A stretch of 64,000 nt of DNA from Angustibacter luteus (GCF_039541115.1 NZ_BAABFP010000008.1:496001-560000); one strand, 5' to 3'; shown: positions 46,008 through 64,000, numbered from the stretch's first letter. Notes: generated by a model not told the origin, from the letters alone. Program-made: numbers and translations.

Positions 46008-46754
46008 TCACGTGCGAGATCGCAGCACGGCGACCTCGGGGTACTCCTCCGGCGGTCCGTATCCGTGCTCGACCAGCCAACGCACGTTGCTCAGGCATCG
46101 CAACGACCACCAGGCGCGGATGAGCTCGCGGTCGACGTCCGTGCCGTAGCCGACGATGACGTCGTCGAGGTGCTCCGGGTGTCCGAGCGTGAGGGTGGCA
46201 AGGTCGAACAGCGCGTCACCCCGGGATCCCTCGGACCAGTCGATGACGCCGGTGACCTCGTCACCGGTGACGAAGACGTGGTCCACCTGCAGGTCGCCGT
46301 GCACAAAGACCTCTGCCCACGGCCGCAGCGCCCGCTCAGCGAGTCGGCGGTTGCGGGTGACCACCTCCGCCGGAAGGACGCCGTTCGCGACGAGCCACTC
46401 GCACTCACGGGCGAGGCCCGAGGCGAGCTCGTCGAGGCTCCGTCCGGGCCACGGTGGCGGCGGCGCGTTGTGCAGAGCTCGGACGGCAGCGCCGGCCGCG
46501 ACCCACGCCGCCGAGGTTGCGGCGGACGGCTCGCCGAGGTGGCCGAGCGCCGTCCCGGGAACCGCGGCCAACGCGAGCACGGGCGGGTTCCGCCAAAGGA
46601 TCGTCGGGGTCGGGAGCGGCGCCATCTCCATCACCTGGATCTCGACGTCGGTGCGGAACGGATCGGCATCGACCTTCAGGAACACGTCGCCGACGCGTAG
46701 GGTCGCCCGCTCGCGATGAGCGACGACGACCGAGACCTCCTCCACGTTGGCCAT
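46008..46754 (-). CDS. Aminoglycoside phosphotransferase-family protein
   Basis: VFLKVD, HGDLQVDHV, GVIDW, GDALFDLA. Confidence 0.88.
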   Translation of the reverse strand: MANVEEVSVVVAHRERATLRVGDVFLKVDADPFRTDVEIQVMEMAPLPTPTILWRNPPVLALAAVPGTALGHLGEPSAATSAAWVAAGAAVRALHNAPPPPWPGRSLDELASGLARECEWLVANGVLPAEVVTRNRRLAERALRPWAEVFVHGDLQVDHVFVTGDEVTGVIDWSEGSRGDALFDLATLTLGHPEHLDDVIVGYGTDVDRELIRAWWSLRCLSNVRWLVEHGYGPPEEYPEVAVLRSRT

Positions 46755-46837
46755 GATCGCGGGCTCGGCCGCCCGACGTCACCCCATATCTGCGCGCACC
46801 TGGACCCCGAGGTGGACGTCGTCGATAGCCTGCGGCG

Positions 46838-48013
46838 ATGGTCGCCAGGACTCCGATCGCCGTCGCTGCACTGGTGCGCGACGGCCTCGTGCTCCTGGTG
46901 CATCGCCATCCGCTGCGGCGGTGGTACCCGGATTGCTGGGACCTCGTCGGCGGACACATCGAGCCCGGCGAGTCGCCACGCCAGGCCGTGACCCGGGAAT
47001 GCCTCGAGGAGCTCGGTGTCTACGTCGAGGACCCTCGACCCCTCCCGCTGACGTTCAGCGACCCCACCCTGGACATGCACGCCTTCCTCGTGACGCGGTG
47101 GGAGGGGGAACCCGTCAACGCCGCACCCGAGGAGCACGACGACCTTCGCTGGTTCCGACCCGGCGAACTCGAAGACCTGAAGACTGCCCACCCGGGCAGC
47201 GTCCCGAGCCTCATCTGCGCACTGCAGGGCGCCACCGACCAGCCCGGCGAACGCTCCGGACGCGGACCCGCTGTCGGTGGGCCTTCGTATGCTGAGCGCG
47301 TGGCTGAGGGCGAGTTCGTCGACCGGGACCTGCGTGGCGCGCGGTTCATCGAGTGCGACCTGTCGGACGTGGTGATGCGCGGCGTCGACATCGCTGGGAT
47401 GGACATCGATGCTCCCTGGCTGCACGTAGGCCCGGGACTTCGGGTGAACGGGGTCGACGTGGCGCCGCTGGTCGAACAGGAGCTTGATCGCCGCTTTCCT
47501 GGCCGCAGCGAGCGGCGGGCGGAGAGCTCGGCTGGTCTGCGTGCGGCCTGGACCAGCGTGGACCAGGCGTGGGCCACGGCGATCGAGCGCGCGACGACGC
47601 TACCCGCCGGGTCCGTCGACGCAAGGATCGATGACGAGTGGTCCTTCGCGGAGACGCTGCGCCACCTAGTGCACGGCATCGACCTCTGGCTGGGCAAGGC
47701 CGTGCTGGGCCGGGAGGAGGCTGACTTCCATCCCCTCGGTCTCGGGTACGGCAGCAAGGCCTCCGAGGCTGTGCCTTATGGCGACATCGTGGCCGCCCGC
47801 GCGAACCGGGCCGCGATGGTGCGCGACTTCCTGGCCACCGTCACCGACGAGGTGCTCGACGAAGAGCGCCGCAACCCGCACAACCCGGCGAAGACCGAGA
47901 CGGTGCGCCACTGCCTGCACGTGATCCTCGGCGAGGGTTGGGAGCACCTGCGATTCGCCCTCCGTGACCTCGACGCGATCGAACACCCGCCAGCCCGGAC
48001 GTCGACGTCCTGA
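46838..48013 (+). CDS. NUDIX hydrolase in frame with a pentapeptide/DinB-family protein (DinB has its own GTG at 47300)
   Basis: Nudix box GGHIEPGESPRQAVTRECLEELG; DinB EWSFAETLRHL...EGWEHLRFA. Confidence 0.82.
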   Translation: MVARTPIAVAALVRDGLVLLVHRHPLRRWYPDCWDLVGGHIEPGESPRQAVTRECLEELGVYVEDPRPLPLTFSDPTLDMHAFLVTRWEGEPVNAAPEEHDDLRWFRPGELEDLKTAHPGSVPSLICALQGATDQPGERSGRGPAVGGPSYAERVAEGEFVDRDLRGARFIECDLSDVVMRGVDIAGMDIDAPWLHVGPGLRVNGVDVAPLVEQELDRRFPGRSERRAESSAGLRAAWTSVDQAWATAIERATTLPAGSVDARIDDEWSFAETLRHLVHGIDLWLGKAVLGREEADFHPLGLGYGSKASEAVPYGDIVAARANRAAMVRDFLATVTDEVLDEERRNPHNPAKTETVRHCLHVILGEGWEHLRFALRDLDAIEHPPARTSTS

Positions 48014-48020
48014 CCGGGCG

Positions 48021-48057
48021 GCGGCAGCCGCGAAGGGGCGCAGCTCACCCGATCCGG
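48021..48057 (+). repeat. Array repeat, degenerate copy
   Basis: GCGGCAG...GATCCGG immediately before the TCA stop at 48058. Confidence 0.4.
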
Positions 48058-48612
48058 TCAATCGCCGTTCTTGGGCAGTCGCCACCCCCACTGCCACGGC
48101 CACAGGAACCTCCTGCCGTGGTGAGCGAGCTCGTCATAGGGGAGGAGGCGCAGGCGTCCGATCGCGCCGGCGAGCGCGTCCTCGTACTGAGCGGTCTCGA
48201 ACGCGAGAGAGGCGGGCGCATTCTCGATGGGCTCAGGCGGCTCGTAGCCGTTCTCCCAGGCGAACTGACTCCAGGTGGTCAGCTCGGTGCCTACCTGAAG
48301 CCTGGCCGTGACTGCTCCACACGCGAGATCACCGCACGCGCCGCACACGAAGAGGAAGATCCGTCCGATGTCGAGCCCGTCCGCCGGACGTACGCCGAGC
48401 AGCTCGTCGATGGCGCGCTCGACGCCTGGGAGCCAGGCACGGTTCAGTGGTGTGACAAGGCCGCGGCTACCGGGAAGGGAGTCCGACAAGGCCCGTCCGT
48501 CGACCACGATGTCGAGGAAGTGCGACTCGGGGTACCTCGTCACGTTCCCGTCGTGGAACGTCCGCCGCAACACGACAGCCTGCAGAGCGAGCTGCGAAAC
48601 CTCAGTGGTCAC
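48058..48612 (-). CDS. Hypothetical cassette protein with CxxCxxxxC motif
   Basis: FLDIVVDG, FVCGACGDLACGAVT, WSQFAWEN. Confidence 0.7.
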   Translation of the reverse strand: MTTEVSQLALQAVVLRRTFHDGNVTRYPESHFLDIVVDGRALSDSLPGSRGLVTPLNRAWLPGVERAIDELLGVRPADGLDIGRIFLFVCGACGDLACGAVTARLQVGTELTTWSQFAWENGYEPPEPIENAPASLAFETAQYEDALAGAIGRLRLLPYDELAHHGRRFLWPWQWGWRLPKNGD

Positions 48613-48662
48613 GAGTGCACCCCAAGGTCCGTTCGCCTCCCTCGATTCACACCTCGATCAGG

Positions 48663-48688
48663 GGCGACCGCACGTGCCGGCAGACTCC
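48663..48688 (+). repeat. Array repeat, degenerate copy
   Basis: GGCGACCGCAC..CGGCAGACTCC abutting the TCA stop at 48689. Confidence 0.45.
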
Positions 48689-49090
48689 TCACGGCCTCTT
48701 GCGAGGTCGGGCGAACGCCCGGGCCGGATCGATCGCGGCGTAGGCGAACACCAGTCCGAGCACGATAAGCAGGAGTCCAGCCAGGATCTGCGTCGGGCTC
48801 CCCGCCAGGTGGGCCTGTGTGGGGTTCGATGCCGCGTAGCGGATCGTGACGGTGTCGCCCGTATGAAGGGACTCGTCCTCCAGGGTTGTGGTGACGTCGC
48901 GCCCGGATGAGGTGGTGAAGCGGACGGTGAAGGTGTCCGGCCACCGGTCGCGCGCCTCGACGCTGACTACCTGCGCCTGAGCCGTTACCCCGTCGCGGGA
49001 CACGGCAAGCTCGGCCGCCAAGAGCGACACGCCCCACGCGATCAGGCCAGCGCACATGACGATCGAGAACGAGCGTTGAATGATCCGCAT
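48689..49090 (-). CDS. DUF3592-like membrane protein
   Basis: TM, G..AQAQVV, VRFTTSSG, GDTVTIRY.ASNP, TM. Confidence 0.7.
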   Translation of the reverse strand: MRIIQRSFSIVMCAGLIAWGVSLLAAELAVSRDGVTAQAQVVSVEARDRWPDTFTVRFTTSSGRDVTTTLEDESLHTGDTVTIRYAASNPTQAHLAGSPTQILAGLLLIVLGLVFAYAAIDPARAFARPRKRP

Positions 49091-49311
49091 CGGTCTGCGC
49101 CATTCCGGCCTTGCCTTGGCCGAGGCCGCCGGCGGCGGCTTCGCGACGGTTCGGTCGACGTGCGGCAATGACCGACGCGGGTGGCGACGACTGACGGCCA
49201 CGCGAGGGTGCCTCCTCTCCATCCGTGCACGTGCTGATGCCGGCCCTCGGTTCCCGGACGGCGGCGCCCGCTGGATGATCGCACGCGTCGGCTCGACGCC
49301 CGGCCGCGCCC

Positions 49312-49455
49312 CTATGCGTGGTCGCGAGGCTCGCTCATCGTCGCGAGGCTTTGCGCTATCGACGCCAGGGCTAGGGCCTGGACCGCCTCCCAGGTACCGG
49401 GCTTCAGCTTCTCCGCCAACTTCGTCGCCTGCTCTGCGAGTTCCTTTGCCGTCAT
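49312..49455 (-). CDS. Small hypothetical protein (47 aa)
   Basis: TACCGT -10 seven nt before ATG; helical sequence. Confidence 0.5.
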   Translation of the reverse strand: MTAKELAEQATKLAEKLKPGTWEAVQALALASIAQSLATMSEPRDHA

Positions 49456-49513
49456 GTCGTGCACGGTACGGAGGCCGCGCGCCTGGTGCGTGGCGACGCG
49501 CGGAGCTCCTCGT

Positions 49514-49537
49514 CCCTCCACGCGGCAGATCCGGGCG
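49514..49537 (+). repeat. Array repeat (module B part)
   Basis: CCCTCCACGCGGCAGATCCGGGCG. Confidence 0.8.
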
Positions 49538-49554
49538 CCACGAGCTGCACGTCT

Positions 49555-49941
49555 TCAGACGGCTTCCGCGACCTGGATCAGGTGACCGTCCGGATCCTCG
49601 ACCCACGCGATGAGGAGCCGCCCAAGCCACGGCTGCGGCTCCTTCACCGGCGTGGCCCCGACCTCTTGGAGGCGTGCGTATGAAGCCGCGGCGTCGTCCG
49701 TCCACAGAATCACGGCAGCACGCTGGCCATGCGCAACGGGCTCGAGGCCATGGTCGTCGCGAGTGGACCCCTCGCTGGCCAGACCGATTCGGTACCCGTC
49801 GAGCACCAGGTCGACGTGGATGGGGGAACCCTCCGTGGGAGTTCTGAAGACCTCCTCAAAACCGAGCGCTTCATAGAAGCTCACCGTCCGAGGCAAGTCC
49901 CTACTGAACAACACGACCTGGGGGGTCCTGAACAGGCTCAC
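49555..49941 (-). CDS. VOC/glyoxalase family protein
   Basis: FYEALGF, WVEDPDGHLIQV; CAGACT -10 six nt before GTG. Confidence 0.88.
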   Translation of the reverse strand: MSLFRTPQVVLFSRDLPRTVSFYEALGFEEVFRTPTEGSPIHVDLVLDGYRIGLASEGSTRDDHGLEPVAHGQRAAVILWTDDAAASYARLQEVGATPVKEPQPWLGRLLIAWVEDPDGHLIQVAEAV

Positions 49942-49984
49942 CTTCGCAGTCTGGCAGGACCAACGGCGCAAAGCTCACCGTCTA

Positions 49985-50035
49985 GCCCTCCCACCGTGGC
50001 ATGACCGGTCGGCCGCCCTCAACGCGGCAGACCGG
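49985..50035 (+). repeat. Array repeat (B-B)
   Basis: GCCCTCCCACCGTGGCATGACCGGTCGGCCGCCCTCAACGCGGCAGACCGG. Confidence 0.8.
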
Positions 50036-50235
50036 CCGAAGATGACGGCACTGAGTGGGGATACTGGAGACGCCGTCAAGATCGAAATCCCCGAGGAGAC
50101 GTTCGCTGCGCGCTGGGCGACGTCCCGCGGTACCTGCGCTCGCTGGGCCTCGGACGGCTCCGCAAGGACCACAGCCTGCCGTTGACCCCTCCGGCGGAGA
50201 AGGTCTGGATTCAGTCCGTGCAGGAGTTTCGGCGA

Positions 50236-50262
50236 CGCCCTGTCCGCGGCAGATGCGGACGT
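50236..50262 (+). repeat. Array repeat (right end)
   Basis: CGCCCTGTCCGCGGCAGATGCGGACGT abutting the CTA stop at 50263. Confidence 0.7.
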
Positions 50263-50637
50263 CTATCTGAACTCGGTGAGGGACAGCACGTTTCCGTCAG
50301 GATCGCTGAACCACGCGACGTGATCGCCGTTTGGAGTCGTCCACACACCTTGCGCGTCCTGCTCCATGCCGTCGTATCGGGCGAAGACAACGCCGAGCGA
50401 AACGAGCCCGCTGACGGACTTGCTCAGGTCAGCCACGCGCCAGCCGAGAACGGTGTAACCGGGGTGGGCTACCTTCGCCACGGCAGTGACGCGCAGCATG
50501 GTGCGGTGAGCGTCAAACACGACCGCGTAGGCGTTCTCATCGATGACGCGAAGCCCGAGGACTCGCTCGTAGAAGGTGCGCGCCCGGGCCAAATCGGTTG
50601 CGGGCGCGAATGCGACCACATCGCTGGTTGCCAGCAC
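50263..50637 (-). CDS. VOC/glyoxalase family protein
   Basis: DLARARTFYERVLGL, AWFSDPDGNVLSL. Confidence 0.9.
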   Translation of the reverse strand: MLATSDVVAFAPATDLARARTFYERVLGLRVIDENAYAVVFDAHRTMLRVTAVAKVAHPGYTVLGWRVADLSKSVSGLVSLGVVFARYDGMEQDAQGVWTTPNGDHVAWFSDPDGNVLSLTEFR

Positions 50638-50762
50638 GGCAGCCCCCTCAACGGTGACGACAAGCGCTTCAGTGTGCCGCACGAGTACCGCGGCCTGCAC
50701 TCCTCTCGGCCTGAGAGTCGATCGGCGCCGGGCCGCAGGCAGGCGGCGAAGTGACGCGGGTA

Positions 50763-50784
50763 CGGATCGCGGCAGATCCGGGCG
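50763..50784 (+). repeat. Array repeat (core)
   Basis: CGGATCGCGGCAGATCCGGGCG. Confidence 0.75.
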
Positions 50785-50820
50785 TTGCCCGGAGGTCGCC
50801 TTTCCACCAGTCTGATGCGC

Positions 50821-51186
50821 GTGACAGGGATGATCCGTCAGCTTCAGGTTGCCCTTGAGGAGCGGGCCTGGACGCAGACGCGGCTGTCAATGCGCGAGCC
50901 CACAGCCTCCTTGTCGACGGAACTTCTTGAACTGCGCCCCGTTGATGGCTCCGGCGCGACGATCAAGGTCGTCGAGGATGGGGGCAGCCTCCATGTCATG
51001 GCGGGTGATCGCACCGAGGACTTGCTCGACAATCAGCGCGCTGCCTTGGATCTGATCGCGGCCATCGTTGAGCAGGGATTGGTCGAGGACTACCTGCTCG
51101 GGTGGTTCCGGAACGGCCGTCCTGCAAGCGGTGGCGAGATGCCGCGCAGTGGTTGGCGACGGCGCAAGGTATGGCCGGCACATTGA
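50821..51186 (+). CDS. Hypothetical cassette protein
   Basis: Open frame filling the gap between two repeats; start approximate. Confidence 0.5.
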   Translation: MTGMIRQLQVALEERAWTQTRLSMREPTASLSTELLELRPVDGSGATIKVVEDGGSLHVMAGDRTEDLLDNQRAALDLIAAIVEQGLVEDYLLGWFRNGRPASGGEMPRSGWRRRKVWPAH

Positions 51187-51198
51187 CAGGGCCAATCA

Positions 51199-51264
51199 CC
51201 TGAACATCGGCAGGGGCGCACGCTCTGCGGCAGGACCGGGCGATCGCCCCCAACGCGGCATGAC
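51199..51264 (+). repeat. Array repeat (A+B, diverged)
   Basis: CCTGAACATCGGCAGGGGCGCACGCTCTGCGGCAGGACCGGGCGATCGCCCCCAACGCGGCATGAC. Confidence 0.8.
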
Positions 51265-51298
51265 AGTGCACGACAAGCGTGGTGCTTTGATGTGGGGC

Positions 51299-51928
51299 AT
51301 GGCTTTGGAGACCACACGGTTGCTCTACCTTGCGCGTCACGCCGAGCCAGAAGGCGGCGACAGCTCGGGACTGACGTCGAACGGTGCACGGCAGGCTGAG
51401 TACTTGGGCCGGCGACTCGCACCTCTGGCGGTGGGCCGAATCACGCATGGGCCGCTCCCCCGTGCGGCCGAGACGGCACGAGTGATGGCGGAGCAGTTCG
51501 ATCAGATGCCCTCACTCTCTGAACTCGACGCCGCAGGCGACTACGTCCCACATGTGCCGGGTCGTGACGAACTGCCCGATGCCTGGGCGGACGCCGTGCT
51601 GTCCTTCATGGGAGACGTCTCCCAGGACGAGGTGGCCCACGGCGCCACTCTCGGTGCCCGGGCCGTCGATCTGCTGGCCGGCCCTGCGGTGGATGGGCGG
51701 GAACCTGTCGATGTCGTCGTTACCCACGCTTTCACTATCGGGTGGTTGGTGCGCCACGCGTTGGACGCCCCGGCCTGGCGCTGGTTCCCCCCGAACCAAT
51801 GCCACGCCGGACTGACGGTCATCAGGTACGAGGTCGACGGCCCTCCGTCGGTCGTCGTCGCCAACGACATCGCTCACCTACCGACCGAACTCCAGTGGAC
51901 CGGATTTCCGATGCATCTGCGGCTGTGA
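51299..51928 (+). CDS. Histidine phosphatase (phosphoglycerate mutase) family
   Basis: LYLARHAE, GPLPRAAETA, VVTHAFTI. Confidence 0.85.
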   Translation: MALETTRLLYLARHAEPEGGDSSGLTSNGARQAEYLGRRLAPLAVGRITHGPLPRAAETARVMAEQFDQMPSLSELDAAGDYVPHVPGRDELPDAWADAVLSFMGDVSQDEVAHGATLGARAVDLLAGPAVDGREPVDVVVTHAFTIGWLVRHALDAPAWRWFPPNQCHAGLTVIRYEVDGPPSVVVANDIAHLPTELQWTGFPMHLRL

Positions 51929-51934
51929 GGCACC

Positions 51935-51956
51935 CGTCCGCTCATCGGCCTTGACC
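51935..51956 (+). repeat. Array repeat, left end only
   Basis: CGTCCGCTCATCGGCCTTGACC six nt after the stop. Confidence 0.55.
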
Positions 51957-52140
51957 ACAGGGAGGCATGACCGTCCTCGCTGTGGCCTGTTCCAATGGCG
52001 CCGTCAACTCCGCAAAAGTGGCCGGTCACCTTTGAGGTGATGGCCGCTGAGAGACCGTCTTCGGTGGTGGTCGCCTCAGCACCGATCTTGCGGGGCCGGG
52101 CTCGCTTGACCGCGACCTCTGGGCAGGTAAGCATCTGCGG

Positions 52141-52950
52141 ATGCTTCCTGATGCGTTTCGCCTCGCCGATCGCGTCGCGTTGGTCACTGGTGCGGGCGCG
52201 CCGGACGGCATCGGCCTGTCGGCGGCCCGACTGCTGGGTGCTCTTGGTGCCCGAGTGGCAGTGTCGGCGACCACCGACCGCGTGGTGGAACGCGCCGCCG
52301 AGCTGCAAGTATCGGGTGTCGACTCCATGGGGGTGGTGGCTGACCTCACCCAGGACGACCAGGTGCGGCAGGCACTCGCTGCAGTCGAGCGGGAGCTCGG
52401 TCGGCCCACGATCCTGGTGAATTGCGCGGGGATGACGAGCCTCAGCGCACCTGCGATCGACGTTGCGTCCTCTGGTGGCGAGGAGTCCGGGACTGCAACC
52501 GGTATGACCTACGACCTGTGGCGCCGGTCGCTCGCTCGCAACCTTGACACGGCGTTCCTGACGACGCGGGCGGTGCTTCCGGGGATGCAGCAAGCGGGCT
52601 GGGGTCGAGTCGTCATGGTGGCCTCGGTGACCGGGCCGGTCATGGCGATGCGGGGGGAGGCGGCCTACGCCGCCGCCAAGGCCGGCATGGTGGGCTTGGC
52701 CCGCTCCATCGCAGTGGACTACGCCCGGGACGGCGTCACTTCCAATGCCGTGGCGCCCGGCTGGGTCCGCACCGGTAGCCAGACCGCCGACGAGGCGATC
52801 CAAGCGCGTCACACTCCGGTCGGGAGAAGTGCCACCCCGGACGAGGTCGCCTCGGCCATCGCCTTCTTGTGCAGCCCTGGCGCCTCCTACGTCACCGGTC
52901 AGTGTCTCGTCGTTGACGGCGGCAACAGCATCGCGGAAGAGCGCAGTTGA
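52141..52950 (+). CDS. Short-chain dehydrogenase/reductase (FabG-like)
   Basis: [36 protein letters not shown]. Confidence 0.92.
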
Positions 52951-53068
52951 TCGGACCGGATGCCACCCCGTGCCCGTTGCCTTCAGGATCGCCCTGAGCG
53001 GCGTACCCGCGTGGGTTGGGTCTTCGGCCGGTAACGGGCACCAGGAAGCGCCGGGCCTCAGGACATCT

Positions 53069-53093
53069 CCACCCTCACCGCAGCAGATCCGGA
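53069..53093 (+). repeat. Array repeat (module B part)
   Basis: CCACCCTCACCGCAGCAGATCCGGA. Confidence 0.75.
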
Positions 53094-53112
53094 ATCCAAA
53101 TCCCGAGAGCAC

Positions 53113-53475
53113 CTACCAAGTCCATAGCACGACGATCACAGCCAGCAGGATGCCGCCGCAGAGCGGGACGAACCAGTTCTCGAACTTCTCATCCCCGTCA
53201 GTCCAACCTTCAGGGCGCTCCCGGCCGCCAAACGCCGTGAGCTCGACCCTGCTGCGCACGACGAGGATCGCGGCTAGGCCCACGCCCGCCATGATGGCGA
53301 GCGCCTCGTTCACAGTGGTGGCCGATGCTGCCAGGCCGCTGCAACAGACGAGGACGAAGGCGAACATCGCTGCCAGAGCGATGCGACGCTCGTGGCCGTG
53401 CCAACGATGGCAAGCCGCCCAGACCGCGAGGCCCCAAGAGATGAGCGCACACAGCGCTGGGCCTGCGGTGATCAT
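53113..53475 (-). CDS. Small multi-TM hypothetical protein
   Basis: Four hydrophobic segments. Confidence 0.55.
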   Translation of the reverse strand: MITAGPALCALISWGLAVWAACHRWHGHERRIALAAMFAFVLVCCSGLAASATTVNEALAIMAGVGLAAILVVRSRVELTAFGGRERPEGWTDGDEKFENWFVPLCGGILLAVIVVLWTW

Positions 53476-54481: not shown

Positions 54482-54482
54482 T

Positions 54483-56777: not shown

Positions 56778-56915
56778 CACCCGGCGCAGACGAAGGCGAG
56801 CGGGCGCGTTGACCTCACGCGGCTGCGTGTCAGTTCTGGACGGCCGCCAACACCGACGGCAAGACTCCAAGTCGATGCACCACGAGCGACGAGCGGGGAC
56901 AGCACGATGACCGAC

Positions 56916-57338
56916 ATGCCTTGCCTCGCGATCGGGGCCGTGCTGGGCGACTCGGACTCGGAGAGCCGGGACTGGGGTCGAGCGATCAGGGAGGTTTCGA
57001 TGGAAGCCAGCGCGCTGTGTGCCGAGGTCAACAGCCCGATCTTGGTGAACGCTGTCCTCCACGTGGACGGGCGCATCGTGCCGAACGAATTCACGGGGGT
57101 CCGGACTGGCCGGTACGACCGCCACACCCACGTCCTGGTGGTGCAAGTCGCGATGGGCAATCATGCTCCAGTCGACGGCGACCGACGAACGGTGCTTGTC
57201 AACCTGGTGGCTGACGCCTTGGACGAAGCTGAGCGGTACGCAAAGCGAAGAGGGTTGGCGGATTCGCTGCCCGAGCTCCGCCAGGTCTTGCGCCAACTGC
57301 AGCGGCCGACCGGACAGGGGAACTGCCCAGAAACCTGA
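56916..57338 (+). CDS. Hypothetical cassette protein
   Basis: CACGAT -10 seven nt before ATG; FTGVRTGRY..LVVQVA. Confidence 0.7.
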   Translation: MPCLAIGAVLGDSDSESRDWGRAIREVSMEASALCAEVNSPILVNAVLHVDGRIVPNEFTGVRTGRYDRHTHVLVVQVAMGNHAPVDGDRRTVLVNLVADALDEAERYAKRRGLADSLPELRQVLRQLQRPTGQGNCPET

Positions 57339-57380
57339 CTGTCTCCGTTGCAGACAGACGTCCTACGTCGGAAGGGGCAG

Positions 57381-57847
57381 GTGCGAGTGGCGGTCGGCGC
57401 CACCATCGTTGGGGCTATGTCGTTCCCCGCCGGAGAGCCGGAAGTCGAGCACGTGACCCTGACGCAGCCCGGCAAGGCTCACCCCGGGTACTCGTTGCGC
57501 GCCTCGCATCTGTCAGGGATGGCCATGTGTGTCGAAGTCGCTACCCGAAGGGGGGCTCGCGTGGCTGCCCGCACGAGTCGGAGAACCCGGCCTTCCTGGA
57601 GTCGACAGCAACGCCGGCCGGCTGGGTCGCCATCGCCGACGGCCCGATGGGCGCGACTGACCTCGGCGTCCGTATGCAGGGCACCAAGACAACCCTGCCC
57701 GCTCAACCGATGCCGCAGGAACTGGGTTCGGGGACGTATTTGATCATCACCGTGCCGAGCGACGAAGTACGGCTCACCCTGACCTGGAAGGACGAGGGCG
57801 GCCGACGCATTGCGACGCAGCATCGAACAGCAATCGAAGGCAACTGA
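57381..57847 (+). pseudogene. Probable frameshifted gene (G6 run at 57550-57555)
   Basis: Protein-like reading continues in a different frame after the G tract. Confidence 0.4.
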
Positions 57848-57861
57848 CCGCCAACACTTGG

Positions 57862-57889
57862 GCCCTCACCGCGGCAGATCCGGGCGAGC
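57862..57889 (+). repeat. Array repeat (B core)
   Basis: GCCCTCACCGCGGCAGATCCGGGCGAGC. Confidence 0.88.
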
Positions 57890-58151
57890 CGGGAGCAAGG
57901 CGCGGCGCTGCTGGCCCCATGCGAAGTGAGTCTCGCAGCCCCAATCCTCGAGTCCATCGGCGAGGACCCGCAGTTCCTCGAGCCAGCGATCGAGGCTCGA
58001 CGGTTTCCAGATGAACTCTTCTCCTTGCGCGCGGACTTGCACCCACCACATCCCTCCAGGAGGCGGTGGATCGAGCTCCCGCATGGTGCGCCCGAATGGA
58101 GGCGTGCTGTCAGCGGTCCACCCCAGCGCACACCGTCGCGCCGGCGACGTC

Positions 58152-58232
58152 AGCGACCCACAGGCACGACCGCAGGCGCTCCGTGGCAGTTCCGGGCGAG
58201 CAGTCGCCCTCAACGCGGCATGACCGGTCGCT
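58152..58232 (+). repeat. Array repeat (A+B)
   Basis: GGCACGACCGC..GTGGCAGTTCCGGGCGAGCAGTCGCCCTCAACGCGGCATGACCGGTCG; flanked by AGCGACC/GGTCGCT; overlaps the CTA stop at 58231. Confidence 0.88.
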
Positions 58233-58515
58233 ACTCGTTTACCTGAGATCGAAGACGCCTGACCTCCGCCACCAAGGCGGGCAGTGCGTTTCGTGCCGCG
58301 GCAACCAAGTCGCAGGTAGAAGTGTCCGCTGGACCGTTGTCACGGGCGAGGTACAGGTCACCCAGGCGAGCTGACCCCTCGCCGACCCGGATGAAGGTGT
58401 CGCCGGACAACGGATCGCGCCCCTCGACGATCGACGTCCACGGGGGCGGGTCTGCCGCCTCGGACAGTCGCAGGAGCCGATCAAGTGCCGCTTCGTCGAG
58501 GGCCATCTCCTCCAT
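58231..58515 (-). CDS. Small hypothetical protein
   Basis: AADPPPW...DLVAAARNALPALVAEVRRLR. Confidence 0.7.
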   Translation of the reverse strand: MEEMALDEAALDRLLRLSEAADPPPWTSIVEGRDPLSGDTFIRVGEGSARLGDLYLARDNGPADTSTCDLVAAARNALPALVAEVRRLRSQVNE

Positions 58516-58553
58516 GCAGGACATGGTGTCCGAAGGCGGATCGAAGTGCACTC

Positions 58554-58620
58554 ACATCGGCACGACGCGCACGATCAGCGGCAATTTCGGGCGACCGGAG
58601 CCGCCCTCACCGCGGCCCGG
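58554..58620 (+). repeat. Array repeat (A+B)
   Basis: ACATCGGCACGACGCGCACGATCAGCGGCAATTTCGGGCGACCGGAGCCGCCCTCACCGCGGC. Confidence 0.88.
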
Positions 58621-58653
58621 TCGGCGCTGATCCGGGAGTCTGCTCGAGTTCCG

Positions 58654-59226
58654 TCAGCCGCGCCAGGACTTCAAGTCTGCTCGCTGCCGTAGCACCTCGG
58701 ACGGTGAGTCGTAGTAGCGAATCAAGACGTCGAGGGCCTTGAGGGTCAGCTTCTTACCCGCGTCGTCGATCCGCCCAGAGAGGCGGAGCAGCGTGAAGCC
58801 GGCGGCGACAGTGATCGTTGCGGCGTCGACGTCCTCTGGGTTGTCCAAGTCGGCGGACACGTCTGAGAGTCCAGCGTCTTCCAGCAGGTCGGTGACTGTG
58901 GTGTCAGGACCGAGTTCTTCACGGCGCTCGTCCCACTCGGAGAGCATGTCGGAGCCCTCATCAGTCCCGAATGGCGCGAACTCACCCGCAGGGTCCTCGT
59001 AAACGGGGTCGGAGAAGTGCGCCGTGAAGGCCGGCGCGGCCTTGGGCAGCTGTCCCCCGGGTATCGGCGCCTTCGTGGTGGTTGAGGGTCGGCTTTGGAC
59101 GGGCGCGGCTTGGCCGGAGTGATTGCACCCGGCAAGAACGGTGATGGCAGCCACGAGAGCCGCGTAGACCATGGGCGTAGATGCGCGACTCACTTGCTTG
59201 GGCACCGCCGTCACGTCAGCAGTCAA
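58654..59226 (-). CDS. Putative lipoprotein with YfeS/MolR-like domain
   Basis: Lipobox VLAGC; APFGTDEGSD.L motif; start uncertain. Confidence 0.6.
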   Translation of the reverse strand: MTADVTAVPKQVSRASTPMVYAALVAAITVLAGCNHSGQAAPVQSRPSTTTKAPIPGGQLPKAAPAFTAHFSDPVYEDPAGEFAPFGTDEGSDMLSEWDERREELGPDTTVTDLLEDAGLSDVSADLDNPEDVDAATITVAAGFTLLRLSGRIDDAGKKLTLKALDVLIRYYDSPSEVLRQRADLKSWRG

Positions 59227-59255
59227 GCATGATGGCTTGAGGGCACCGCGGATGG

Positions 59256-59302
59256 CATCCGCCCATCGGCACGACCGCGCCCGATCAGCGGCAGATCCGG
59301 GC
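59256..59302 (+). repeat. Array repeat (module A only)
   Basis: CATCCGCCCATCGGCACGACCGCGCCCGATCAGCGGCAGATCCGGGC. Confidence 0.92.
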
Positions 59303-59311
59303 CTTTCGGTT

Positions 59312-59674
59312 CTACCACGGGATCAGCCAGCGCCTGATCCGACGACCTTTAGCATCTCGGGGAAGAGGTGGCAGAACTCGCCTCCTCCCCTCTTCATCCA
59401 GTCCCCGCGTTACGAAGCCATGATGGTGGACGTAAATACCGAGTGCAACGAGGCTCAGCAGGCTCGCCGCCAGTACTGTCCCGGCAAGCGCTCCGACCGA
59501 CCCAGCCACGAGGGTGGCAAGCCCCTGGGCCGGGTCGAAACATCCGCAGCCGCCGAGGTCTGGCGCGTGTCCGATGCCAAGGCGCCAACCCTGTCGGGCG
59601 CTTAGGACCATCACCGGCACGACGATGACGCAGAAGCCCACGGCCACGAGCGCAGCGCGAACGCGACGCGACAT
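59312..59674 (-). CDS. Small two-TM hypothetical protein
   Basis: GGAGGTG RBS, two hydrophobic segments. Confidence 0.55.
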   Translation of the reverse strand: MSRRVRAALVAVGFCVIVVPVMVLSARQGWRLGIGHAPDLGGCGCFDPAQGLATLVAGSVGALAGTVLAASLLSLVALGIYVHHHGFVTRGLDEEGRRRVLPPLPRDAKGRRIRRWLIPW

Positions 59675-59782
59675 GCTCACCTCCCGGACGCACCATAAAG
59701 GCCGTCATGGGGTGGATGTGACGTCGTGATCCAACCGTCATCCAGAGCCACCCCGCCAGACGAATCGTCGTCCGACAAAGCG

Positions 59783-59824
59783 CGCTCATCGGCAGGACCG
59801 CGCACGGTCAGCGGCAGATACGGA
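59783..59824 (+). repeat. Array repeat (module A only)
   Basis: CGCTCATCGGCAGGACCGCGCACGGTCAGCGGCAGATACGGA. Confidence 0.88.
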
Positions 59825-59937
59825 AATTCCGACCACCAGTCGGGCACGGTGGTGTCGAGAGCTCGGGATTGCCCCCTTCAAGCGAAGTGCGGCAGCGTTG
59901 GCCTCGATACCCGCAGTTACTGACCTGAGGAGCAGGC

Positions 59938-60138
59938 ATGCTGCCATCGCCGCTGAAGCTTGAGGGTGAGTCGGTCGCCGGGCACGAGCCACCCGAGTTG
60001 CTGGTCTTCTGGGACAACGGGCACGTGGTCGAGCTCCACCTCACCAAGCCCGGGCAAGAGCCCGCAGTCATCAGTCTCGGGCCGAACCAGACCGTCGCCC
60101 TTCGCAACTGGCTCACCGGTTTCCTCAGCGCAGGCTGA
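59938..60138 (+). CDS. Small hypothetical protein
   Basis: GAGGAG RBS, 66 aa between two repeats. Confidence 0.6.
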   Translation: MLPSPLKLEGESVAGHEPPELLVFWDNGHVVELHLTKPGQEPAVISLGPNQTVALRNWLTGFLSAG

Positions 60139-60174
60139 CTCGCACGTCACGGAATGAGAGGCACGCTCCGGCCA

Positions 60175-60221
60175 ATCCGCTCATCGGCACGGCCGCGCGC
60201 GATCAGCGGCATGATCGGATG
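60175..60221 (+). repeat. Array repeat (module A only)
   Basis: ATCCGCTCATCGGCACGGCCGCGCGCGATCAGCGGCATGATCGGATG. Confidence 0.88.
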
Positions 60222-60265
60222 TGCCACAGGGGTGTGCGCCGAGTCTGTCAGGAAGGGTGACGCAA

Positions 60266-60457
60266 GTGAGCAAGCGCAAAGACTTCAGGGCCGAGCAACA
60301 AGAACTTCAGCGGTTGCTCGCTCGCGAGCTGGCCGAGTACGGGCCGCATCCGCTTGGCCCGAAGGACGCGGACAGGGTGGCCTGGCACTTGGCTGATGTC
60401 ACGCTCGCGGTGGTGATCGAAGCGGTGAAGACCGCTGAGGCGCCATCCACTGGCTGA
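60266..60457 (+). CDS. Small hypothetical protein
   Basis: Purine-rich leader, 63-aa helical ORF between repeats. Confidence 0.5.
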   Translation: MSKRKDFRAEQQELQRLLARELAEYGPHPLGPKDADRVAWHLADVTLAVVIEAVKTAEAPSTG

Positions 60458-60482
60458 CCGGCCGCAGTCATGAATCGAACCT

Positions 60483-60540
60483 GCGATCAGCGGTAGATCC
60501 GGGCGAGCGTAGCCGCCCTCAACGCGGCAGATCCGCGCGA
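60483..60540 (+). repeat. Array repeat (A end + B)
   Basis: GCGATCAGCGGTAGATCCGGGCGAGCGTAGCCGCCCTCAACGCGGCAGATCCGCGCGA. Confidence 0.92.
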
Positions 60541-60619
60541 GACCCGGGATTGCGTAGGGTCGTGAGGCTGCTTAAGTCGTCGTGTCGATCCACCGAAGCG
60601 ACCAAGTGCGCATCGCGGC

Positions 60620-60834
60620 TGACAACGTCCAGCCCTGACTTCGCCGATCTGTACACGCCGTTCGACGCGCTCGTCTTCTTCGCAGACGCCGGCAACGGGG
60701 ACCAGTTCGGGGTCGCCATGCGAGCCAACCGGGAGGTCTACGTCTGGAACCACGAGAACGACAGCAGGACCTGGGTCGCGCCGTCCATCCTGAGGTACCT
60801 CGAGGACACGATGTCGGGGCAGACCAAGGTGTGA
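60620..60834 (+). pseudogene. 5'-truncated SMI1/KNR4-family gene
   Basis: PDFADLYTPFDALVFFADAGNGDQF...VYVWNHENDSRTWVAPS is the C-terminal half only. Confidence 0.65.
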
Positions 60835-60848
60835 CTGCCGAGCCAGCG

Positions 60849-60886
60849 GGCACGCTACGGTCGCGGTCGGCTGCAGATCCGGATGT
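60849..60886 (+). repeat. Array repeat (diverged A)
   Basis: GGCACG...GGTCGGCTGCAGATCCGGATGT abutting the TCA stop at 60887. Confidence 0.75.
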
Positions 60887-61099
60887 TCAGCTCGTGCCTC
60901 GATTCCGGACGAGGACAAGGTTCTGTGCACCGCAAGTTGGGCACCAGAGGCGGTACTCGCCATGGTTGGGCTCTTGCTCGCCGGCGGGGATCCAGTCCGC
61001 CCGCAACACGGCATCGCCAAGCTCGGGACAAGTCAGATCGACCATCCCTGTCTGGGTCACTTGGCGGGCAGCCTCAAGCCACCCCTCACGTCCGTCCAC
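60887..61099 (-). CDS. Small Cys-containing (Zn-ribbon-like) protein
   Basis: TAGCCT -10 six nt before GTG; CPELG...CPTCGAQN. Confidence 0.7.
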   Translation of the reverse strand: MDGREGWLEAARQVTQTGMVDLTCPELGDAVLRADWIPAGEQEPNHGEYRLWCPTCGAQNLVLVRNRGTS

Positions 61100-61162
61100 T
61101 CCCGCAGGCTAACCCGGTCGCCGTCATCCGCGGGCCACGCTGGCCAGGATGGGCGCGGCAGT

Positions 61163-61180
61163 GCACTCAACGCGGCATGA
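61163..61180 (+). repeat. Array repeat fragment
   Basis: GCACTCAACGCGGCATGA. Confidence 0.6.
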
Positions 61181-61189
61181 GAGTGCGGT

Positions 61190-61528
61190 TCAGCCGTGGT
61201 CGTGCCAGGCGTAGTACTGCCCCTGGCTTCGGGCGCGGCGGCGGCTCTTCTTGGTCATCCACGGGTACCGGTCGGCGATCCACGCCTCTGCCTGCTGTTC
61301 CTCACCGCTGGGCCACTGGCCTCCCAGACGGATGTGAACTTCTTCGATATGGGCCTCGATCGTTGAACGGGCCAGCTCCACGGCAGCCACGAGCGCATCC
61401 CGACCATCTTGCGGCTGGCTCGGAAAGAGTTCGGCGGCCAGCTCGGCTACGGGCCGGCGCCAGTTCGAGCCGAACTCAAGGGCAGCCTCGAATAGCCGGT
61501 TGAGGTCAGCGTCGTGGGGAGCAGCCAT
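61190..61528 (-). CDS. Hypothetical cassette protein
   Basis: CAGGAT -10 six nt before ATG; ALEFGSNW, YPWM, SQGQYYAWHDHG. Confidence 0.7.
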   Translation of the reverse strand: MAAPHDADLNRLFEAALEFGSNWRRPVAELAAELFPSQPQDGRDALVAAVELARSTIEAHIEEVHIRLGGQWPSGEEQQAEAWIADRYPWMTKKSRRRARSQGQYYAWHDHG

Positions 61529-61577
61529 GCGCACATCCTGCCGGTGCGCGACGTCAGCGTTCATGCTTCCAACAACG

Positions 61578-61604
61578 ACACGACTGAGCGCGGTCAGCGG
61601 CAGA
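61578..61604 (+). repeat. Array repeat fragment (A)
   Basis: ACACGACTGAGCGCGGTCAGCGGCAGA. Confidence 0.55.
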
Positions 61605-61647
61605 GGAGTATGGCCCCCGGCGCGCGCTGCACCGCTGCCGGGTGCGG

Positions 61648-62034
61648 TCATTGGAAGGGCTTCCCGTCAAGGATCGTTCCGTCTGTCTTGAAGCAAGAAG
61701 TCACGGCTTCGCGCGTCTCTCTTGTCCATCGTTCGAGCCACTCACTGGACTGCGTCGCCGGCCGTGCCAACCAGCTCTGCGCTGCGACCCGAACTAGAGC
61801 CTTGAACTGCTCAGGGGTTGAACGGCCAATCTCGAAGAGGTCTTCGAGCTCGGCCCAGGCGCAGTAGAGCTCACCTGCGTGGGGAAGTTCGGGATCATCG
61901 AGAAGGTCTTGCATCCGCGACCGGGTGATTGCCTGGTAGGCGGCCTCGGGGTCCGTTGCGGCAAGCGCTGCCCGTGCCGCTGGGTCTGTGTTTGACAGCA
62001 GCCGCCACTCTCGCTGCAACGCATCGCTGGTCAC
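61648..62034 (-). CDS. Hypothetical cassette protein
   Basis: TAGGTT -10 six nt before GTG. Confidence 0.65.
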   Translation of the reverse strand: MTSDALQREWRLLSNTDPAARAALAATDPEAAYQAITRSRMQDLLDDPELPHAGELYCAWAELEDLFEIGRSTPEQFKALVRVAAQSWLARPATQSSEWLERWTRETREAVTSCFKTDGTILDGKPFQ

Positions 62035-62092
62035 GATGGCAACCTACGACGCGCGATCCAGGGCAGGCCACGTCTTGGGATGAACTCAATCG

Positions 62093-62167
62093 CGGCCGCA
62101 CAAGCACGACCGCCCTCAACGCGGCAGATTCGGGCGAGCGTAGCCGCCCTCAACGCGGCGGATCCGG
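62093..62167 (+). repeat. Array repeat (B-B)
   Basis: GCACGACCGCCCTCAACGCGGCAGATTCGGGCGAGCGTAGCCGCCCTCAACGCGGCGGATCCGG abutting the TCA stop at 62168. Confidence 0.92.
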
Positions 62168-62554
62168 TCACTCGTAGATGGTGGCCGCCTGTAAGGCGTC
62201 GTTGACAACCTCCCATCCGTTGCCCGGAGGGACCCGGTCGCGGTTGTCGTAGTAGCCCCCCGAATCGGCGAGCCACGCGGCGAACGCCTCCAGGTACTCG
62301 TGCAAGGCAACATTCGTCCAAGGGGCACCACCGGCGGCATCGATAGCCAGTGCTCGTGCGGTCGCGATGACCCTGTCCCGCCCGCCGGCCAGAGATGCCG
62401 ACGGGCACCCGCCAGCTCCGCACTCGGTGTCGACGTCAGTATCGCCATGCTCGAACTCATAGTGAAAGCAGACATAGTGCATCCGCTCGAACACCTCATA
62501 CTGGGCGGCGCTCTCGCGGACGGGTCGATGGCATCGCTGGCATTCGAGAGTCAC
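62168..62554 (-). CDS. Cys/His-rich N-terminus plus immunity-like C-terminal domain
   Basis: CQRC..HYVCFHYEFEH..C....CP; W.N..L..YLEA.AAW..DS.GYY...AATIYE; CATGCT -10 six nt before GTG. Confidence 0.72.
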   Translation of the reverse strand: MTLECQRCHRPVRESAAQYEVFERMHYVCFHYEFEHGDTDVDTECGAGGCPSASLAGGRDRVIATARALAIDAAGGAPWTNVALHEYLEAFAAWLADSGGYYDNRDRVPPGNGWEVVNDALQAATIYE

Positions 62555-62596
62555 GGCGGCAGCATGCCAGTTGCCGAGCAAGAGTTTGTGCCAAGC

Positions 62597-62644
62597 CATC
62601 CGAACATCGGCACGACCGCGAAGGCTCAGCGGTAGAGCCGGGCG
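62597..62644 (+). repeat. Array repeat (module A only)
   Basis: CATCCGAACATCGGCACGACCGCGAAGGCTCAGCGGTAGAGCCGGGCG. Confidence 0.9.
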
Positions 62645-62714
62645 TCCTCCGTGCTCTGCCCTGGGGTTGTACGCCTGGCAGGCACTCGCGAATCCATCCC
62701 CCTACCCTGCTGGC

Positions 62715-62951
62715 ATGACCGATGACGGCGCCTCGGTTGGGTTCCCGGAAGACCTGGCAGGGCACTATTGGGCGCAGCTCGAGCGCACAGAGCCAAAGGG
62801 CCGATGGCGGTTTGCCGTGCTCGACTACCAGAACAACGTCTTGCTGACGGGACTCGCGACCAGTGAGCAGCAAGCGGCTCGTATCGTACGTGCCTGGGAT
62901 CAGATCATCGTCTCCGAGTTCGAGGGAAGCGAGGATCCGAGCATCGACTGA
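62715..62951 (+). CDS. Small hypothetical protein
   Basis: TACCCT -10 six nt before ATG. Confidence 0.65.
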   Translation: MTDDGASVGFPEDLAGHYWAQLERTEPKGRWRFAVLDYQNNVLLTGLATSEQQAARIVRAWDQIIVSEFEGSEDPSID

Positions 62952-63098
62952 TCGACGTCGCCGATCGGGCTGAGGCGTACCAAACCCGCACGGCGCAGGC
63001 CGACGGACAACGGCAGATTCGGTGGACGAACCGGCGGTTTGACTTACGTCTGGGTCGTACACGCCTCGCATGAGGGTCAGCACGCCGATACTGACGGT

Positions 63099-63347
63099 AT
63101 GACTCATCACCCGAGACTGACGACGACGTTTGGATACCTCGCCGTCGGCCTTGGCGTCCTTGCTTTCGGCCTGATCAGTGCCGCTGGCATGTCGAACATG
63201 GGGGACCCTGGACCCGGTGACTCGCTTGAACCGCCGCGCATCTTCTACGTCCTGACGGCCTGCGCTGGCGTTGCTGCAGTTCTCGCCGTCGCTGGGGGAC
63301 TCGCCTCTCTCGGCTCGTGGCTGCGATTCAGGCGCGACCAAGCGTGA
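63099..63347 (+). CDS. Small two-TM membrane protein
   Basis: GATACT -10 six nt before ATG; TGA overlaps the next repeat. Confidence 0.65.
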   Translation: MTHHPRLTTTFGYLAVGLGVLAFGLISAAGMSNMGDPGPGDSLEPPRIFYVLTACAGVAAVLAVAGGLASLGSWLRFRRDQA

Positions 63348-63428
63348 CGTCCGAAGATCGGCACAACCGCGCGGATCGCGGCACATCCGGGCGAGCGAAG
63401 CCGCCTTCACCGCGGCAGACCCGGACGT
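63347..63428 (+). repeat. Array repeat, full-length (A+B) with ACGTCCG/CGGACGT termini
   Basis: ACGTCCGAAGATCGGCACAACCGC...GCGGCAGACCCGGACGT. Confidence 0.92.
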
Positions 63429-63513
63429 AGACGGATTCGGTGCGTGCACTTCCGGCACGGCGCGTCGAACGTGGTGAACCTTGCCGGGTCGGCCGTTGGA
63501 CTTGTTCAGGCGT

Positions 63514-63813
63514 TCAGGGCGTGGCGTCAGGCTCGATTCGTCCTCGTCTGCGCGCCAGGCGCCAAAGAAGAGTTATGAGAATCGCGAGTCCCCAGGTAAC
63601 ACCAACGGCGCCATGAAGCAGCCGGTCCATTTTGGACCGACTCGGATCGCCCACGAAGCCGTCGCCGAGCCAGATCAACACCAAGAGAAAGAGCGGAGCA
63701 TCGTGCCAGCTCCACCGTTCAGGGAAGAGCTCACGACCGGCCGCAGCGGCCACGCACGCAGCTATCCCAAAGCCGATTGCCACGGCGTAGATAGCGACCG
63801 TCAGTACTTGCAC
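63514..63813 (-). CDS. Small three-TM membrane protein
   Basis: GATCCT -10 six nt before GTG; hydrophobic segments. Confidence 0.6.
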   Translation of the reverse strand: MQVLTVAIYAVAIGFGIAACVAAAAGRELFPERWSWHDAPLFLLVLIWLGDGFVGDPSRSKMDRLLHGAVGVTWGLAILITLLWRLARRRGRIEPDATP

Positions 63814-63851
63814 ACGAAGAGGATCGCACGTCGCGATACGGCCGGAGCGGG

Positions 63852-63933
63852 CATCCGAACATCGGCACAACCGCACTCGATCAGCGGCAGATCCGGGCGA
63901 GCGTAGCCGCCCTCAACGCGGCAGATCCGGATG
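63852..63933 (+). repeat. Array repeat, full-length 82 bp consensus-like copy
   Basis: CATCCGAACATCGGCACAACCGCACTCGATCAGCGGCAGATCCGGGCGAGCGTAGCCGCCCTCAACGCGGCAGATCCGGATG. Confidence 0.95.
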
Positions 63934-64000
63934 ACTTGGTGAGAATGGACAGATGTGGGAATGGGAGACGAGCGTGGTCCTGGTCCGGAGCGCCGCCGAT

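Follow-up and report, generated by a model that had tools for sequence, protein, structure and literature searches.

The window, a stretch of 64,000 nucleotides from Angustibacter luteus (genome G000, contig C8:496001-560000), contains beyond a sugar kinase gene a row of small genes of mutually unrelated families, separated by copies of a short repeat lying almost entirely on one strand. An original prediction, made from the sequence alone, had described this row as an integron-like gene-capture array built on a repeat that is neither an attC site nor a clustered regularly interspaced short palindromic repeat (CRISPR). We consider it likely, with a probability of roughly 0.72, that the region from 49.5 to 69 kb comprises about 30 horizontally acquired cassettes joined at direct, double-stranded sites of an Xer-like tyrosine recombinase that is not of the IntI type. 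G-numbers below denote genomes, C-numbers contigs, and L-numbers other loci or contigs carrying the repeat or the recombinase.

The core of the repeat, GCGGCAGATCCGG, matched 32 times in the window with at most two mismatches, compared to a mean of 7.65 in shuffled sequences (standard deviation 2.8, maximum 19; 0 of 100 shuffles reached 32). Twenty-eight of these matches lay at 49522-63918, and all but one of the 28 were on the + strand, the lone - strand match in the array stretch being one with two mismatches at 58446. The four matches in 1-46 kb each had two mismatches and were divided evenly, two on + and two on -, which is chance level. Profiles of the two unit types (A and B), built from the window's own copies, were searched with nhmmer at a cut-off of E <= 0.01; all 36 matches were on the + strand and fell within 49514-66949, and the top match in 1-46 kb reached only E = 0.31. 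The oriented repeat predicted between the genes at 46-64 kb, and its absence from the gaps of 1-46 kb, were both borne out. Support for the 27 individual starts that had been proposed was uneven: 19 were recovered at E <= 0.01 and four more (50236, 50763, 53586, 60849) as cores with at most two mismatches, while 48021, 48663, 51935 and 61163 were faint traces only; of the two positions described as weaker traces, 63011 was faint and 56790 was not found. The window edge at 64000 is not the end of the array. Its 32 junctions run from 49514 to window-equivalent position 69038 (C8:565038), about 5 kb past the window end, and delimit 31 segments with a median length of 419 bp, 28 of them below 900 bp (full interval range 204-2487 bp). 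Most segments were nearly filled by a single open reading frame (ORF) on either strand, and G+C content drops from about 0.72 to 0.65 across the array, in agreement with the prediction of genes facing both ways and richer in A/T than the first 46 kb. Several junctions were degenerate and some segments held no convincing ORF, which is compatible with array decay but not proof of it.

Across the whole genome we found 92 cores with at most one mismatch, 40 of which lay in three clusters confined to one strand each: the array itself (C8:545522-565026, 30 cores), C4:463434-465680 (6) and C5:845301-847127 (4). The other 52 were dispersed over both strands, and 23 of the 25 exact cores were inside the three clusters. 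An ordinary repetitive extragenic palindromic (REP) element scattered genome-wide in both orientations, named with the original prediction as the outcome that would count against it, is not what this distribution resembles.

The two unit types share the core, which is preceded by CATCGGCACGACCGCGCnCGATCA in the A unit and by GCGAGCGTAGCCGCCCTCAAC in the B unit. Junctions consist of A alone, B alone, A+B or A+B+B, with a core spacing of 32-34 nt. Each site is laid out as a variable left arm (CCCTCAAC in B-type, CGCACGATCA in A-type), a non-palindromic central hexamer, GCGGCA, and a right arm, which is GATCCGGGCG in this array and often TGAGCGKRCG beside recombinase genes. Judged by eye, the minimal conserved part is (G)CCCTCAAC-GCGGCA-GATCCGGGC(G); in GCCCTCAAC-GCGGCA-GATCCGGGC the arms are mirrored at 6 of 9 positions, and mirroring of the A-type arm improves if the centre is taken as 7 nt. 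Xer/dif-type sites, for comparison, have two inverted recombinase-binding arms flanking a centre of 6-8 bp. On the right, similarity stops variably at the end of GCGGCA (followed by TGAnC...), of GATCCGG or of GGGCG(AG), which would be the expected look of hybrid sites formed with different partners. Three cassettes (window 54479 and 60883; L001 710) begin with ATGTTCAG right after the core; this sequence mirrors CCGAACAT, present leftmost in A-type units, and some cassettes may have it as a terminal inverted repeat.

The junctions and genes identified in the window are as follows, with the insertion delimited by alignment to the same-genus genome G003.

45936..64000, continuing to window-equivalent 71157 in contig C8, no strand: strain-specific insertion holding the array (G003 alignment).
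46008..46754, -: APH-type phosphotransferase gene, within the insertion and left of the first clear site (PF01636, E 3.3e-19).
46838..48013, +: NUDIX-pentapeptide-DinB_2 gene at the left border of the array (PF00293, PF12867).
49514..49534, +: junction, B-type left arm and exact core (E 0.0074).
49555..49971, -: cassette gene of the glyoxalase family, filling segment 49535-50010 (PF00903, E 6e-14).
50011..50032, +: junction, B-type (E 2.8e-5).
50237..50258, +: junction, core with one mismatch (core match; weak profile match).
50263..50700, -: cassette gene, glyoxalase / bleomycin-resistance-like (PF00903, PF22677).
50766..50781, +: junction, exact core (core and profile searches).
51198..51260, +: composite junction, A-type unit followed by a unit ending GCGGCATGA (E 2.9e-4).
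51323..52950, +: two-gene cassette, histidine phosphatase then short-chain dehydrogenase (52141-52950), with no site between the genes (PF00300, PF13561).
53072..53092, +: junction, B-type (E 0.003).
53586..53630, +: degenerate junction, core with two mismatches (weak profile match).
54400..54478, +: composite junction, A and B units, two cores 34 nt apart (E 1.6e-13 and 2.6e-9).
54483..54941, -: cassette gene, DUF6869 (PF21746, E 1.9e-15).
54938..54972, +: junction, B-type (E 2e-4).
55285..55374, +: junction of three tandem cores with a period of 32-34 nt (copies read; profile search).
57862..57883, +: junction, B-type, exact core (core and profile searches).
58152..58227, +: composite junction, final unit ending GCGGCATGACCGG (E 3.9e-9).
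58553..58616, +: composite junction, degenerate (E 5e-7).
59256..59300, +: junction, A-type, exact core (E 9e-13).
59783..59823, +: junction, A-type (E 2.7e-11).
60175..60211, +: junction, A-type, ending GCGGCATGATCGG (E 3.5e-8).
60483..60536, +: composite junction, two cores (E 1e-10).
60550..60834, +: cassette gene, SUKH_6 / SMI1-KNR4 type (PF14568, E 3.9e-7).
60863..60882, +: junction, core with one mismatch (weak profile match).
61571..61604, +: junction, A-type, degenerate (E 0.0015).
62100..62167, +: composite junction, two cores (E 5e-8 and 8e-10).
62168..62599, -: cassette gene, DUF7660, filling its segment from site to site (PF24693, E 1.5e-13).
62597..62641, +: junction, A-type (E 5e-12).
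63349..63424, +: composite junction, A and B units (core and profile searches).
63852..63930, +: composite junction, A and B units with two exact cores, the best-preserved copy (E 6.5e-13 and 4.4e-11).

Gene calling by third-position G+C content and codon usage, trained on the long ORFs of the genome, was poor inside the array because codon use there is atypical; ORF occupancy and Pfam matches were used instead. Only 9 of 108 ORFs of at least 75 aa at 46-64 kb had a Pfam match above cut-off (APH, NUDIX-DinB_2, two glyoxalases, His_Phos_1, short-chain dehydrogenase, DUF6869, SUKH_6 and DUF7660), most ORFs having none, and a rescan of the 34 best ORFs at E <= 0.1 yielded nothing further above a cut-off. 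Array genes past the window end included PGPGW and PrsW. The SUKH_6 cassette belongs to a family used as immunity proteins; any immunity role of the cassettes is putative, and most belong to no known family. Genes of the NUDIX and/or DinB_2 families recur at array edges or beside the recombinase described below (window 46838-48013, L056 7147-7632, L126 17189-17488, L080 and L009), and in the window the NUDIX-DinB_2 gene occupies the spot where a recombinase would be expected.

G003 aligns to 40525-45935 (85%) and 71158-75252 (78%), with 1516 bp between the aligned blocks in G003 against 25.2 kb in G000. The 1516 bp hold one DUF234/AAA ATPase gene (L163 5386-6789); this gene is in the syntenic position, so what lies between the sugar kinase and a major facilitator superfamily transporter varies between species. 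The original prediction had suggested comparing close strains; in the congener compared here the whole locus is missing. Empty sites for the two small clusters, on C4 and C5, were looked for in G003 as well, where rearranged flanks precluded a clean comparison.

In an all-against-all BLASTP comparison of ORFs of at least 150 aa from 40 repeat loci, no gene was common to all loci, the widest cluster spanning seven. Of 33 distinct repeat loci, five had a member of one tyrosine recombinase family within 10 kb of the repeat, namely L019 (frameshifted), L054 (fragments), L056, L068 and L069 (two copies). The linked enzyme has about 308 residues and is Xer-like, scoring 126 bits against the XerD model (cut-off 330), far below both the XerC and the XerD equivalog cut-offs, and 60.6 bits against the integron-integrase model TIGR02249 (cut-off 265). 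Its best solved relative in the PDB was XerD (5e-22), and IntI4 was matched only over residues 228-294. The R, K, H, R, H and Y positions of the XerD alignment, which we take to be the catalytic residues, are conserved. In all five genome copies GCGGCA starts 56-59 nt upstream of the recombinase start codon on the strand opposite to the gene; the sequence between hexamer and start is not conserved across subgroups, and in relatives sites are also present on the far side of the gene. In G077, from another family, a 76%-identical copy (C17:48794-49618, -) is followed by more than 20 co-oriented + strand sites with three cassettes.

We evaluated how general this linkage is in an even class sample of 401 genomes, in which 46 genomes encoded recombinase relatives at E <= 1e-50 (a tally that includes the unpublished G090). 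At identities of at least 74% the sample held nine loci, seven with GCGGCA within 130 nt upstream; in G117 and G070 short rows of GCGGCAT-type sites then follow on the same strand. Scanning metagenomes identified 80 recombinase loci at 70-90% identity, 73 of them with at least 130 nt of upstream sequence; among these the hexamer lay 40-75 nt from the estimated start in 43, and its reverse complement in only one. In 394 kb, a degenerate pattern for the site had 38 matches on the array strand compared to a single one on the recombinase strand. On plasmids no close copy of the enzyme turned up, the best match being 43% identical, from Pseudonocardia. In one recombinase subgroup (about 70-75% identity; L223, L224, L198, L189 and L228) a conserved upstream element, GAATATATC..., is present and GCGGCA is missing; this subgroup may use a different site.

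Homology between recombinase-carrying units breaks at the hexamer. Over a block of 2229 bp with the recombinase in it, contigs L183 and L190 share 99.6% identity. They are unrelated outside this block, one end of which falls exactly on the hexamer (L183 2813-2818, L190 8110-8115) and the other 13 nt past the upstream hexamer. A second copy of the module in L190 (3096-4732, 89.7%) has both ends exactly on hexamers, and the tandem copies L069a and L069b, 97% identical, lose homology just after GCGGCATGA. Units, including the one carrying the recombinase, have therefore been exchanged at the site in these loci; for the window's own cassettes such breakpoints were not shown. Tandem pairs of the recombinase module occur at L069 5869-8547 (97%) and L190 3096-6870 (about 90%), each copy with its own upstream hexamer. 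In relatives the recombinase thus sits inside its own site-bounded module and is not, as it is in integrons, a fixed anchor outside the array.

We postulate that the recombinase would pair two sites and catalyse strand exchange in or next to the hexamer. By such an exchange a circular cassette with one site would be inserted at a resident site, and recombination between two direct sites would release the DNA between them as a circle. The asymmetry of the hexamer would give the site its direction, which would explain why all copies in a locus are co-oriented whatever the direction of the genes. Tandem 34-nt units may arise from out-of-register exchange between adjacent cores. Being carried in a site-bounded module, the recombinase could itself leave an array, and G000 may in this way have kept an array without its enzyme.

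Across 60 related genomes the 18-mer form of the core never occurred more than once per genome (six genomes with one match), compared to 21 matches in G000. In the class sample, which includes the unpublished G094, G101 and G356 with 1-2 matches each, at least four matches were found in 4 of the 401 genomes: G000 (21), G077 (21, with core variant GCGGCAGAACCGG), G379 (6) and G371 (4). Counting one genome per species, pairs of cores 17-24 nt apart were present in at least 121 stretches, and the 42-bp form occurs in several species of Nocardioides, in Cellulomonas endophytica, C. carbonis, Actinotalea and Angustibacter, and in many metagenome-assembled genomes of Actinomycetota. The window profiles matched 56 public loci, and all 31 loci with multiple matches had them on one strand only. 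Gene-free tandem runs of the 34-nt unit were found at L013 10001-10660 (20 units), L118 177-1100 (28) and L125 (G077:C17) 11804-12422 (about 18), for which out-of-register recombination and protein binding are both possibilities. In Actinotalea a tandem run adjoins the recombinase gene and interrupts the assembly, being located at the start of L068 and the end of L046.

These pure tandem arrays of 18-28 units, which recombination does not need, together with the presence of sites in every intergenic gap, are what might be expected if the 34-nt units were not recombination sites but protein-binding iterons or regulatory sites, for instance of a shared repressor, spread by duplication. We regard this as quite unlikely: occurrence on one strand irrespective of which way the genes face sits poorly with promoters or terminators, and both the near-identity of the site across families with unrelated genes between copies and the homology breaks at the hexamer point to a mobile system. 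Readings of the repeats as CRISPR or as terminators were rejected because of their spacing, the ORF content of the intervals, the lack of a hairpin and the confinement to a single strand.

By marker genes the G000 assembly is 100% complete. It contains six tyrosine recombinase matches, none of them an IntI-type integrase, and retains two Xer-type genes (C5:703447 and C7:557664). Pfam scans of the stretch from 46 to 72 kb detected no recombinase, whatever its type, and neither a serine recombinase nor an IS110 transposase was found in G000. Outside the window, at C8:369010-369891, lies a tyrosine recombinase pseudogene with two stop codons that is 34% identical to the array-linked family.

A number of observations weigh against the explanation of the locus as a cassette array of the linked recombinase. 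G000 has no close copy of that enzyme, its best match being a 37%-identical Xer-type protein, so nothing shows that the array is still able to recombine. As many as 28 of 33 repeat loci have no recombinase within 10 kb. Among full-length close recombinase relatives in the class sample, 6 of 7 have no G000-type 18-mer and only generic GCGGCA sites, and 30 of the 73 metagenome loci do not have the exact hexamer at the expected place, several of these misses showing GCGGCG or GCGGCT variants or a misplaced start estimate. Cassettes are scarcely shared between arrays: blastn and tblastx searches against about 120 other loci found relatives of only the NUDIX/DinB, short-chain dehydrogenase and DUF6869 genes, the last 50% identical in L119 and 65 nt from a core. 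Because almost no cassette is common to arrays, reordering of this array's own cassettes is not demonstrable; for tests at the level of reads, no sequencing run containing 54001-64000 was listed. The borders of the insertion relative to G003 do not fall at a repeat copy, the left one coinciding with the end of the sugar kinase gene, and the dyad symmetry of the site is modest at 6 of 9 positions by eye. Finally, L185 carries weak tandem unit matches on both strands, at 27-148 (-) and 3899-4623 (+), flanking its recombinase gene; it is the sole exception to the single-strand rule.

With no close copy of the recombinase in a complete assembly, the array in G000 is best read as an orphan with at most putative recombination activity in this strain. 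The expectation that a recombinase lies outside the window or acts in trans was not supported, and the tyrosine, serine or IS110-type enzyme that was to be sought at the array ends did not turn up. The original prediction was largely right on the kind of system, the repeat behaving elsewhere as the site of a cassette platform with homology breaks and a linked recombinase; it was wrong on the recombinase in G000.

The two Xer-type genes of G000 and the majority of arrays without a dedicated recombinase fit another possibility, in which host XerC and XerD, the chromosome-dimer resolvases, drive modules at dif-like sites; no dedicated enzyme would be needed and the array could still be active. 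For the pdif modules of Acinetobacter plasmids and the elements integrating at dif, movement by the XerC and XerD of the host has been proposed; successive pdif sites are in alternating orientation. These modules and elements resemble the present array in being small gene modules bounded by short Xer-type core sites, and the Xer-like character of the linked recombinase, with its XerD model score and best PDB match, fits as well. We nevertheless consider host-driven movement improbable, since the sites here are all direct and GC-rich and since a dedicated paralogue, far below the XerC and XerD equivalog cut-offs, stands at a fixed distance from the site in many genomes.

The textbook means by which a bacterium stores up and reshuffles single genes is the integron. 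The present arrays resemble integrons and attC site clusters that have no integron-integrase (CALINs), in which enzyme-free orphan arrays are common, as rows of small, unrelated, mostly single-gene units with one oriented family of sites. A complete integron has a tyrosine recombinase divergent from a primary site at the cassette head; a comparable arrangement is seen in relatives (L056, L068, L069, L019 and G077), where sites lie beyond the recombinase gene too, and not in the window or G000. IS110-family elements home to the site of integrons and apparently to the present one. The two differ in that the site here is a short double-strand-type core (arm, GCGGCA, arm) without the single-strand fold of the imperfectly palindromic attC, the recombinase is Xer-like and fails the IntI model, the cassettes face both ways where those of integrons are co-oriented and expressed from one promoter, and the enzyme is carried inside the array in a site-bounded module, sometimes tandemly duplicated. 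In the way it works the arrangement is like an integron or CALIN, yet it has neither IntI nor attC, the two features that define them, and of the CALIN only the notion of an orphan array applies here. The layout with a single gene per repeat, the absence of an integrase nearby and the lower G+C content resemble CALINs as characterized in part of the 2016 IntegronFinder survey, which there reports no complete integron in Actinobacteria (PMC4889954), and would suit a classical integron remnant with very divergent attC sites. Such a remnant is nonetheless very improbable: junctions on either strand form no stable single-strand fold and are no better folded than shuffles (z -0.3 to -0.9), a search of 44-64 kb against Rfam matched nothing relevant, RYYYAAC/GTTRRRY boxes were not seen in the repeat copies inspected (no pattern search for them was made), and both the two-way facing of the cassettes and the low integron-integrase score stand against it. 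The original claim that the repeat is neither attC nor CRISPR stood up; CRISPR was ruled out by the ORF-containing intervals of 204-2487 bp and by pure tandem units without spacers.

The closest published analogue, set beside this array by description, is rAID-1 of Bacteroidales (10.1101/471110), which in the part of that source available to us combines a XerD-family recombinase with repetitive intergenic sequences, skewed or low G+C content and arrays of up to about 31 small genes. Its definition there calls for a XerD-like recombinase sharing 44% identity or more with the B. fragilis prototype and at least two co-directional low-GC genes downstream. The genes of the window have low G+C content and are not co-directional; rAID-1 genes, in contrast, are co-directional and downstream of the recombinase, and the system belongs to a different phylum with an unrelated repeat and another placement of the recombinase. 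In the main texts of the full-text literature, without supplements, we found no description of such arrays in Actinobacteria.

On balance, we lean slightly towards a broader view in which the Actinomycetia own a gene-capture platform with a mobile, site-bounded, Xer-derived recombinase and a GCGGCA core, the enzyme being encoded by about one in ten genomes (46/401), arrays outliving it, and the window array being the largest examined. If this is true, soil Actinobacteria would have a second, independently built cassette platform, and gene collecting would have arisen from Xer-like enzymes on more than one occasion. Small genes without known function, in a large pool, would then be moving between genera, the pool here including glyoxalase / bleomycin-resistance-like, phosphotransferase and SUKH-type genes. 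It would also provide a simple recombinase with a double-stranded site of about 25 bp that works in high-GC hosts.

In L054 (reverse-complement coordinates 10070, 13637 and 16830) three IS110-family copies share one orientation, each starting from the first base of a core. The ORF cluster present in 7 of the 40 repeat loci includes IS110-family transposases (3 of 3 members scanned were IS110), and repeats and attC sites are known targets of IS110 elements, as described in part of the report on the IS1111-attC group (PMC11187229). Like the L054 copies, that group consists of IS110-family elements at the recombination site of cassette arrays in one orientation; the target here, unlike theirs, is a GC-rich core and not attC, and the likeness concerns a parasite of the array, not the array. 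The repeat could accordingly be a selfish or structural element, REP-like or an IS110 target, with ordinary island genes and no cassettes between its copies. This seems less probable still than movement by host Xer proteins, given that G000 has no IS110 transposase, that the repeat is not dispersed genome-wide and has no stable fold, and that homology blocks with the tyrosine recombinase end exactly on the hexamer. The same targeting befalls genuine integron sites and fits the cassette-array explanation as parasitism; the L054 copies, which seem from their positions to home to the site, look like site-specific parasites of the array.

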